Source of the DNA: Myxococcota bacterium
Lineage (GTDB): Bacteria; Myxococcota_A; UBA9160; UBA4427
Direction of reading: 5' to 3'
NCBI GenBank assembly: GCA_965250285.1
Contig: OZ252299.1
Span: 256,001-320,000, forward strand
Length of the DNA stretch: 64,000 nucleotides
Below, in pieces: positions 48,145 to 51,735 of this stretch. The notes under the pieces were generated by a model, which saw nothing but the letters and a program-made list of their open reading frames with translations, ran no database searches and was not told the DNA's origin. Both the position numbers and the translations under genes were made by a program. Numbering within the stretch: the first letter of the stretch is position 1; every line of letters starts with the position of its first letter.

Positions 48145-48687
48145 CTAGGTCTCGGGGCTGCACACGAACATCGGGATGTTGCGGTCGGTGCGCGCCTGAT
48201 AATCCTCGAAGTCGGGGTAGATCGTGAGGATGTGCGGCCAAAGCGCCTTCTTCTCCGCGTCGTCGACCTGCCGCGCGATCATCCGGCGCTTGCGCGCGCC
48301 GTCCTGGATCTCGACCTGCGGGTGCTTCTTGAGATTCCAATACCAGATCGGATGCTTCTCCATGCCGCCTTGGGAAGCGACGATGATGACGTCGTCGCCG
48401 TGGGGCAGGTAGATCAGCGGAATCGTCCGCTTCCGGCCGCTCTTCGCGCCGGTCATGGTCACGAGACAGACCGGCGCGCCACCGGGGAACGTGCCCCACA
48501 CCTTGCCGTTGGTCGCCTCGTATACGAAGACGTTCGCCTTCGACATGAACCGCATGATGGGCTTCACCCATTTCATCGAGCTCTCGGGGATCGGCTTCAC
48601 GTCGCCGCGCGCGCGGGCGACCGCGCCGGGGTCGGGCAGGTCGGCGCTGGCGGTCGAAGTTTCAGTCGGCGGGGTCGCATCGCTCAT
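48145..48687 (-). CDS. Deazaflavin (F420)-dependent nitroreductase family (Ddn-like)
   Basis: [17 protein letters not shown]...[17 protein letters not shown]. Confidence 0.9.
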
Positions 48688-48866
48688 GGGGGCTCCGATC
48701 GATCGGGTGGGCTGCGCCTCCCCGGTATAGCGAAGCCGAGCGCGCGCGTGCCTCGACATGCTGCGCCCGCACGCCGAGAGCCGTCGAGCGTCGCTGCTAC
48801 CTTCGCTGTCGAGGCGCCGCGCGGCGCAGGGGCCGACGCGGCGGCCGACCACGAGAGGGCACCGAC

Positions 48867-49811
48867 ATGGGCGCGCATGCACACGCATCCCAGGTCGACG
48901 CGGTCCGCGCCTACCTGACCGACCTGCAAGATCGAATCTGCGCCGGCATCGAAGCGGCCGATGGAGAGGCGACGTTTCGCCGCGACGAGATCGAGCGGCC
49001 GGGCGGCGGTGTCTCGCGGCCGCGCGTGCTCGAAGGTGGACCGAACGTCGAGAAGGCCGCCGTCAACTTCACGCATACGACCGGCAACCAGATGCCCCCC
49101 GCGGCCACCGATCGCAGGCCCGATCTTGCGGGCGGGTCGTATCAGGCGGTGTCGGTGTCGCTGATCGTGCACCCACGCAACCCCTACGCCCCCACGTCGC
49201 ATGCGAACTTCCGTCTCTTTCACGCGACGCCGCCCGATCGCGCTGCGTCGAGCGAGCCCGTCTGGTGGTTCGGGGGCGGCTTCGACCTCACGCCCTACTA
49301 CGGCTTCGAAGAGGATGCGGTGGCCTGGCACCGCACCGCGCGCGACGCCTGCGCGGCGTTCGGCAGCGACCTCTACGCGCGCTTCAAGAAGGAGTGCGAC
49401 GACTACTTCCAGCTGCCCCATCGTGGGGAGCCCCGCGGCGTCGGCGGCGTGTTCTTCGACGACTTCACGGGCGAGGGCTTCGACCACGCCTTCGGCTTCG
49501 TACGCAGCGTCGGTGATGCCTACCTCGAGGCCTATCTGCCGATCCTCGAGAAGCGCAAGGGGACGCCCTTCGGCGACCGCGAGCGAGAGTTCCAGCTCTA
49601 TCGGCGGGGGCGCTACGTCGAGTTCAACCTGCTCTACGATCGAGGCACCAAGTTCGGTCTGCAGGCGGCGACGCGAACCGAGAGCGTGCTCGCGTCGATG
49701 CCGCCGATGGTGACGTGGCGATACGATTGGCACCCCGAGCCGGGATCGCCCGAGGAGCGCCTCTACACCGACTTCCTGCGTCCGCGTGAGTGGGCGGATC
49801 ACGACGGTTGA
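48867..49811 (+). CDS. hemF: Oxygen-dependent coproporphyrinogen III oxidase
   Basis: [57 protein letters not shown]. Confidence 0.97.
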
Positions 49812-49828
49812 ACCGACTGCAACCGGAA

Positions 49829-49860
49829 CGAGAGCAACCAACGACGAGAGCAACCAACGA
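49829..49860. repeat. Perfect 16-bp direct tandem repeat (2 copies)
   Basis: cgagagcaaccaacga x2, immediately before the SD of the selenoprotein gene. Confidence 0.75.
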
Positions 49861-49876
49861 TAGGAGGCTGCGCCCG

Positions 49877-50215
49877 ATGGCGAAGCGTGTCGACTGGTAC
49901 TACGAGCGCAAGGGCTGAACGTCTTGTCAGCGAGCGTCCAAGTTTCTGGACGCACATGGAATCGAGGCGGCCGAGGTCGTGCCCGCGAGCCGCAAGCTCG
50001 GCAAGAGCGACGCGGCCAAGCTGGCCAAGGCCGCGAGTGAAGTGATCGTCGCGAAGGGCAAGAAGCTCGATCGCTTCAAGGGCGCATCCGCGAAGCCCGC
50101 CGATGTCGAGAAGATGCTCGGCCCGACCGGCAACCTGCGGGCCCCCTGCATTCGCAGCGGCAAGAAGATCCTCGTCGGCTTCAACGAAGAAGTCTTCGAA
50201 GAGGTGCTCGGCTGA
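49877..50215 (+). CDS. ArsC/Spx-like (seleno)protein, 112 aa, Sec at codon 14 (TGA 49916-49918)
   Basis: SD AGGAGG; MAKRVDWYYERKG-U-TSC-QRASKFL...MLGPTGNLRAP..R.GK.ILVGFN; U-x-x-C redox motif; hairpin downstream of the TGA. Confidence 0.85.
49934..49953 (+). promoter_or_regulatory. Candidate bacterial SECIS element
   Basis: GCGTCCA-AGTTTC-TGGACGC: 7-bp stem with a G-containing loop, starting 15 nt after the in-frame UGA. Confidence 0.65.
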
Positions 50216-50220
50216 GACGT

Positions 50221-50253
50221 CGCCGGGGGCGGCGCCGAGCGCCGCCCCCGGCG
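50221..50253. terminator. Perfect GC hairpin between convergent genes (terminator-like, no U-tract)
   Basis: CGCCGGGGGCGGCGC-CGA-GCGCCGCCCCCGGCG, 15-bp stem. Confidence 0.55.
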
Positions 50254-50275
50254 CCATCCTCGCGGTCGAGCGGCC

Positions 50276-50859: not shown

Positions 50860-51735
50860 TCAGAGCTTCGAGAGAATCTCGTTGCCCAGCTGCTCGAGGC
50901 CCTGGGTCACCTGATCGGGGGTGAAGCCCGGCGGCGGGCCCACGACGCGCGAGATACCGAGGTCTTCGAGCCGCTTCGCGTCGTCGAGGCTGCGCAGCGG
51001 TGCGCCCGTCGTGATCTCGATGTCGCTCGGGTTGCGGCCGCTCTTCTCGGCCTCTGCACGCATCGTGTCGAAGAGGTGCGCGAGGGCTTCGAAGTCGATC
51101 TTGCCGCCCTGGACCATCGGGAAGTAGCCGTCGCCGATGCGTCCGGCGCGCCGCGCGGCGCCGTCGGAGTGTCCCCCGACCACGATCGGGATACCGCCTG
51201 CCTGGACCGGCTTCGGGTTCGACTCGATCGCGTTCCACTCGTAGAACTCGCCCTGGAAGGGCTTCGCGTCGCCGCTCCAGAGCTGGCGCAGGGCCGCCAC
51301 ACACTCGTCGGTGCGGGCGCCGCGGCGGGCGAACGGGACGCCGAGCGAGTCGAACTCTTCTTCGAGCCAACCGATCCCGATGCCGCAGGTGATGCGGCCC
51401 TTCGAGAGGACGTCCAGGGTGGCGAGCTCTTTCGCGGTGTAGATCGGGTGTCGCTGCGGCAGGATCAGAATGCCGGTGCAGAGCCGGATCTTCTGGGTCA
51501 CCGCCGACGCGTGGGCGAGCCAGATCAGCGGATCGGGGATCGGCGCGTCTTCGGCGCCGGGCATCTTGCCCGTGTCGCTGTAGGGGTAGGCCGACTGGTA
51601 GCCGACGGGCACGGCCACGTGCTCGACGGTCCAGAGCGACTCGACGCCGACGCGCTCGGCTGTCTGAGCCAGGTGGGCGAGGCCCTCGGGCTGACCGAAG
51701 GGGCCGACGTTCGCGAACGCGAGTCCGTACTTCAT
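50860..51735 (-). CDS. LLM class F420-dependent oxidoreductase
   Basis: WTVEHV, DPLIWL, ILPQRHP, ATLDVLSKGR, GWLEEEF, VGGHS. Confidence 0.9.
   Translation of the reverse strand: MKYGLAFANVGPFGQPEGLAHLAQTAERVGVESLWTVEHVAVPVGYQSAYPYSDTGKMPGAEDAPIPDPLIWLAHASAVTQKIRLCTGILILPQRHPIYTAKELATLDVLSKGRITCGIGIGWLEEEFDSLGVPFARRGARTDECVAALRQLWSGDAKPFQGEFYEWNAIESNPKPVQAGGIPIVVGGHSDGAARRAGRIGDGYFPMVQGGKIDFEALAHLFDTMRAEAEKSGRNPSDIEITTGAPLRSLDDAKRLEDLGISRVVGPPPGFTPDQVTQGLEQLGNEILSKL

Follow-up and report, generated by a model that had tools for sequence, protein, structure and literature searches.

Does the 78-residue open reading frame at position 49979 represent a complete gene, or the remainder of a longer selenoprotein gene whose in-frame TGA has been read as a stop? 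The question arose in the window (the whole stretch of 64,000 nucleotides analysed here, from a Myxococcota genome), in which a first-pass annotation had described an ArsC/Spx-like gene with an in-frame UGA in a U-x-x-C motif, followed by a SECIS-like hairpin and lying directly after hemF. The features concerned, in window coordinates, are these:

48867–49811, plus strand: hemF (oxygen-dependent coproporphyrinogen oxidase; NF003727, 403 bits), ending 65 nt upstream of the ArsC-like gene
49862–49867, plus strand: Shine-Dalgarno-like AGGAGG, 9 nt 5' of the start codon ATG 49877
49877–50215, plus strand: ArsC-like (seleno)protein gene of the NF041106 family, 112 aa, stop TGA 50213–50215
49916–49918, plus strand: in-frame TGA, codon 14, the predicted selenocysteine of U-T-S-C
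49925–49927, plus strand: TGT codon of Cys17, the predicted resolving cysteine (Cys in 180/181 distinct loci)
49934–49953, plus strand: bacterial SECIS-type hairpin with a 7-bp stem and a 6-nt loop AGUUUC, G at loop position 2
49979–50215, plus strand: truncated 78-aa ORF reported by standard callers, without the redox motif
50117–50146, plus strand: signature L-G-P-T-G-N-L-R-A-P, residues 81–90
50216–50258, no strand assigned: GC-rich inverted repeat immediately 3' of the stop, −39 kcal/mol, lacking a U-tail

The DNA bore out the annotated frame: the AGGAGG site and ATG 49877 open 112 codons, in the same frame as the truncated ORF at 49979, and translation with TGA as U gives G-U-T-S-C, with U at position 14, the first position of the CxxC motif. 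With C substituted for U, the product has a mass of about 12.1 kDa and a computed pI of 9.6. At this locus the table-11 ORF list held just the GTG-started 78-aa piece at 49979, and public protein entries include a 78-aa version. Indeed, truncation by gene callers, as the annotation had proposed, appears to be the rule in the family: among the best 120 of 3,380 protein matches, 102 start past the site, 8 have W there and 10 have C (the Cys forms as given in the protein records). The 8 entries with W presumably reflect TGA translated under another code. A TGC or TGT at 49916 would have turned the codon into an ordinary cysteine codon; in one study, three runs yielded contigs that span it, and all read TGA with no other letter, an agreement that is not independent, as one contig may be the window's own source.

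The hairpin was found where the annotation had placed it. It begins 15 nt after the TGA, its loop lies 22 nt after the UGA, and its fold energy is −10.9 kcal/mol (z −4.9; equally stable shuffles, 1/200). The bSECIS model of PMC13188914 specifies a loop of 3–9 nt, a stem of 4–16 bp, G in the first two loop positions, a UGA-to-loop distance of 16–37 nt and a minimum free energy of at most −7.5. The window's hairpin agrees with the model on 4/4 counts, with 6 nt, 7 bp, G at position 2 then U, 22 nt and −10.9 kcal/mol.

Across 60 distinct family loci, the seven stem pairs were kept in 90.7% of cells, a level reached by 0/500 shuffles and compared with 25–41% in slid controls, and two-sided changes occurred in four of the seven pairs. 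The stem is coding sequence, so we tested its pairing by synonymous codon resampling, which gave a mean of 4.15 expected Watson-Crick pairs against 6.0 observed. For the window gene alone, 7 pairs were observed against 4.7 expected (p = 0.064); its own stem is modestly beyond what the peptide dictates, and the strong signal is at the family level. The in-stem Ser codon was TCC in 52/52 and 74/74 loci, and 43 of 240 downstream Ser codons in the same genes were TCC. The extended lower stem was weak (59.5% paired). Eight of the 60 TGA loci did not pair in the hairpin register, five of them forming a hairpin in a shifted register, with GUU in the loop, and three folding differently; in about a dozen of 26 parsed Planctomycetota TGA loci, a consensus-type hairpin was not found at this place.

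Homologues had been expected to carry C or U at position 14, and over 181 distinct homologous loci the codon was a stop in 177, C in 3 and D in 1 (the loci are related, and the counts overstate independence). The first locus set comprised 81 loci, 80 of which extended over codon 14. TGA was present in 64 of these (60 distinct ones, counting the window's own). The other 16 carried TGT or TGC, and every one was a distant match of Spx- or glutaredoxin-like type: 15 had ≤38% identity, and one matched over 22 residues. A metagenome scan with ten Cys-form queries returned TGA in 79/79 distinct loci and no Cys-form locus among the 80 kept of 575. In a host-phylum sample of 201 genomes, 27 matched NF041106, 26 of them in full with one TGA each and one partially. 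Sec/Cys pairs do exist among homologues, through TGC forms in three genomes without sel genes. A quick tree needed eight Sec/Cys changes, two of them forced by well-supported branches; it included one in four of the metagenome loci and left out sequences shorter than 95 aa, and repeated Sec/Cys reversion is only suggested. Two further family copies are unusual. In one (L238, G303:C12:140623-140940), Asp replaces Sec and the resolving Cys remains; this is a second copy, and its genome has a TGA copy and the sel genes as well. In the other (L127, G098:C167), the N-terminal part is out of frame with the rest, through an error in the assembly or decay of the gene.

The annotation had also held that the organism uses selenocysteine. 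In the host genome (6.25 Mb, one contig, 95% complete) all four components scored above their cut-offs: tRNA-Sec (selC) at 62.6 bits (cut-off 47), selA at 492, selB at 317 and selD at 281 bits. The tRNA-Sec was the sole TCA-anticodon tRNA found. The host SelD is a Cys form (C-G-G-C-A-A-K; L018, G000:C1:5312234-5313154), and because it forms the last part of an open frame of 781 codons it is probably fused to an N-terminal domain.

Among 63 relatives searched, selA was present in 41/41 that bear the gene (in one, split over two contigs) and in 16 of the 22 that lack it; none of the six selA-negative relatives carries the gene. In a sample of 201 Planctomycetota genomes, 51 had a family match. 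All 47 TGA-form genomes had selA, as did one further genome with a partial family match only and 14 of the 20 gene-negative genomes checked (of 150). In the three TGC-only genomes, selA, selB and tRNA-Sec were all not found, and two control genomes had all three; two of these three are sister sequences and the genomes may be incomplete, and the pattern of TGC without sel genes counts as two independent cases, both as expected. The cross-genome pattern, TGA with sel genes and TGC without, supports the selenoprotein status of the family. For the recoding step alone, we are nearly certain that the codon-14 UGA is decoded as selenocysteine.

The gene proved less novel than its description as a hidden selenoprotein had implied. 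Its product matched the curated NCBIfam model NF041106 (ArsC_rel_Se_1, 'ArsC family (seleno)protein') at 110.4 bits (cut-off 85) over profile positions 1–107 of 107, and at 102.8 bits when read from the genome through the TGA. The U-x-x-C near the N-terminus is present as U14-T-S-C17, and signature residues G82, G85, R88 and P90 are invariant in 181/181 loci, with Ala (175) or Ser (6) before the signature Pro. The annotation had named RAP as an ArsC/Spx motif, which is right for NF041106 and wrong for Spx, where the motif is RPI (PMC8501982). The family appears as 'Arsenate reductase 2 UxxC' in Dataset S1 of the 2008 GOS selenoproteome (Zhang and Gladyshev 2008, PMC2398784) and as 'Arsenate reductase-like protein, UxxC' in PMC9312934, which attributes it to that study, and in PMC13188914; 'ArsC-like' selenoproteins were already listed in PMC1794560. 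The 2026 review PMC13188914 places NF041106 under 'predicted with high confidence', not 'experimentally verified'. Our literature search, whose coverage left out most subscription papers, found no experimental study of the family, and the available part of bioRxiv 10.1101/2022.07.06.499078 makes no mention of NF041106.

By its sequence, then, the window gene joins a family that was described in 2008 and has a curated NCBI model. The gene call should be lengthened from its 78 residues to 112, and in most public entries of the family the active site is missing, as the counts of short protein matches show. As one more member of a widespread family, the window copy is no easier to test than the others; the natural Cys forms are a convenient starting point for biochemical work. 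A search for longer homologues as evidence of fusion partners gave just seven single sequences with unrelated attachments, which is weak evidence; these look like read-through or chimeric calls. One protein (P0130) is an apparent 211-aa fusion of an NF041106-type protein with a glutaredoxin-like gene, and looks as if two neighbouring genes had been translated as one with TGA=W; its glutaredoxin-like part has a probable Sec of its own (W-G-P-C), possibly making a cluster of two selenoproteins.

In the surroundings of the gene, no conserved neighbourhood was found: the largest real cluster covered 9/60 loci, and 4/26 in a second set, the top three clusters of the 60-locus analysis being shadow frames of the ArsC-like gene itself. 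The GC-rich repeat sits between the ArsC-like gene and convergent genes, and is possibly a terminator-like or mRNA-stabilising hairpin; we rejected it as a dispersed repeat, with just one weak further genome match (E 6.5e-4), and the hairpin at this place in the same-genus genome is a different one. An exact 16-nt tandem duplication at window 49828–49859, just 5' of the ribosome-binding site, has no counterpart in the same-genus genome, where the gap after hemF is shorter. On the minus strand, the flanking genes encode an F420H2-dependent (deazaflavin) oxidoreductase (48145–48888) and an F420-dependent LLM-class oxidoreductase (50860–51735). A GNAT acetyltransferase domain lies between the LLM-class gene and the selenoprotein gene, in the frame of a long upstream ORF.

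The fold offers the main guide to function. The AlphaFold model had a pLDDT of 94, and its best structural matches were ArsC-related, Spx and YffB proteins (Z 8–9.4, rmsd 2.6–3.2, 85–89 residues aligned), with 3gkx at the top (Z 9.4, rmsd 2.6, 89 aligned) and 2m46 also among them. NrdH, glutaredoxins and GSTs followed, and among the top matches of a wide fold search there was none beyond this thioredoxin/glutaredoxin/GST-type group. Over the 181 loci, R11 is invariant like R88, and R/K19 and K/R60 are conserved. Of the annotation's ArsC/Spx-fold Sec redox protein, the fold, the U-x-x-C and the hairpin thus stood, and the redox function is a prediction. From fold and motif, an oxidoreductase function is likely. 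Taking recoding and stand-alone function together, we consider it somewhat probable that the locus encodes a 112-residue NF041106 protein which, with UGA read as Sec, acts as a stand-alone selenol/thiol oxidoreductase.

On this account, SelB carrying Sec-tRNA(Sec) would recognise the hairpin's G-U loop, 22 nt past the UGA, and insert Sec at that codon, a step we infer from the established bacterial pathway. In the predicted thioredoxin-type fold, U14 would be the residue that attacks the substrate, and C17 is predicted to resolve the U14 intermediate to a selenenyl-sulfide, with invariant P90 predicted to lie beside the pair. Re-reduction is predicted to come from glutathione (the host genome carries gshB, 344 bits) or a thioredoxin-type system, and R11, R/K19, K/R60 and R88 are putative binders of an anionic substrate.

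Other explanations of the locus differ in how much of this account they replace. The most radical takes the codon-14 TGA as a real stop or an error, leaving the 78-aa ORF or nothing as product; public gene calls are mostly short (102 of the best 120 protein matches), as it would predict. However, several phyla keep the TGA, flanked on either side by conserved coding sequence; its occurrence follows that of the sel genes, with TGC in its place where they are missing; the contigs of three runs agree on it; and the only TCA-anticodon tRNA found is tRNA-Sec. We give this reading a negligible probability. An operon that ties the gene functionally to hemF and haem synthesis would fit the shared strand, the 65-nt gap in which no promoter-like or terminator-like site was found, and the gene order kept in the same-genus genome; yet a sigma-70 scan finds little in GC-rich DNA of this kind, and hemF was adjacent in only 2/60 distinct genome loci (the window's own and same-genus G001) and 1/79 metagenomic loci, 62 of which had at least 400 nt of upstream flank. 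These three loci group together in the tree. With adjacency confined to the host and its closest relatives, a meaningful link to hemF found no support; we rejected the hemF operon as a clue to function and consider such a tie highly improbable.

Two further readings accept the selenocysteine and assign the protein another role. As a Sec-bearing Spx-like redox switch, it would sense oxidation through U-x-x-C and act on RNA polymerase or promoter DNA instead of serving as an enzyme. Spx proteins gave the best sequence-profile matches in the PDB (E 1e-7) and the best Foldseek matches, U-T-S-C equals the C-T-S-C of Spx, and the protein is basic (pI 9.6) and its gene stands alone. Spx contacts the DNA backbone through T11, S12, K15, R60, K62, R91 and Y105–D108 (PMC8501982), several of which align with conserved T15, S/T16, R/K19, K/R60, K/R62, R88 and F102–E105; this alignment of many contact residues with conserved ones keeps the regulator reading alive. 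Of the marks of the Spx family, CXXC, G52 (the alpha-CTD contact) and RPI (PMC8501982), however, G52 lies in a 4-residue stretch missing from the NF041106 profile, and the base-reading R92 of Spx aligns with Ala89. The model predicts a beta hairpin at 55–67 in the inserted subdomain, just 85–93 of 113 residues align with Spx-like structures, and the Spx/MgsR model TIGR01617 gave 28 bits, far under its cut-off of 75. For the window protein we regard this role as unlikely, and for the family as a whole, a selenium-based Spx-like transcription switch in Myxococcota, Planctomycetota and marine Gammaproteobacteria, as slightly more doubtful still. If true, it would be a selenoprotein regulator of transcription that keeps the T-S core and many of the DNA-backbone-contacting residues of Spx and has rebuilt the polymerase-facing subdomain. 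As a separate observation, among the matches listed for Planctomycetota (L252–L271), counted by eye, 17/20 genomes have a second protein besides RpoA with two tandem alpha-CTD-like domains.

The protein could instead be a true reductase of arsenate, or of another oxyanion, in which Sec replaces the catalytic Cys. The ArsC-type fold, a His at −4 from the Sec in 115/181 loci and the basic residues (invariant R11 and R88 plus R/K19 and K/R60), which may form an alternative anion pocket, are in its favour. Classical ArsC has HX3CX3R and an Arg60/Arg94/Arg107 triad (PMC3169414), neither of which is kept. The window protein reads E10-x3-U14-x3-Q18, position 18 in the family is mostly T, and K60, A89 and F102 occupy the triad's places in a sequence alignment. 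In classical ArsC, Arg94 precedes the Pro and Arg107 follows the final strand; R88, one residue off the aligned Arg94 place, could be a substitute. The Pfam ArsC model PF03960 scored 19.2 bits, below its cut-off of 24, a reading by eye of the recurring neighbour clusters turned up no arsenic genes, and the host has a separate classical ArsC in Cys form (HNPRCSKSR; L128, G000:C1:927723-928040) plus three LMWPc-family genes elsewhere in its genome. We think a true reductase of this kind distinctly unlikely, and favour the stand-alone selenol/thiol oxidoreductase.

Set beside known systems, the predicted oxidoreductase shares its fold and the position of its attacking residue with the glutaredoxin-dependent ArsC of the E. 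coli R773 type (PF03960) and with the 'Arsenate reductase 1, UxxS' selenoproteins, whereas its motif is the dithiol-type U-x-x-C in place of their C/U-x-x-S. YffB/ArsC-related proteins (PDB 1rw1, 3gkx, 2m46) are its top structural matches (Z 8.7–9.4) at about 20% identity. YffB, reported to bind glutathione (PMC3169414), likewise lacks the full Arg triad, but as described there it has a single Cys, against Sec plus a resolving Cys here. With Spx of Bacillus subtilis (PDB 1z3e, 3gfk, 7f75) it has in common a thioredoxin-type core, several aligned basic residues and, as a Sec variant, the N-terminal CXXC; R-A-P-x stands in place of R-R-P-I, and the inserted subdomain is predicted to be different. 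From the NF041106 family it differs in nothing of substance, the local neighbour hemF alone being particular to a small clade, and with the sequences of the 2008 Dataset S1 it shares the W-Y-Y-x-R-x-G-U start, the position of U-x-x-C and the LGPTGNLRAP signature.
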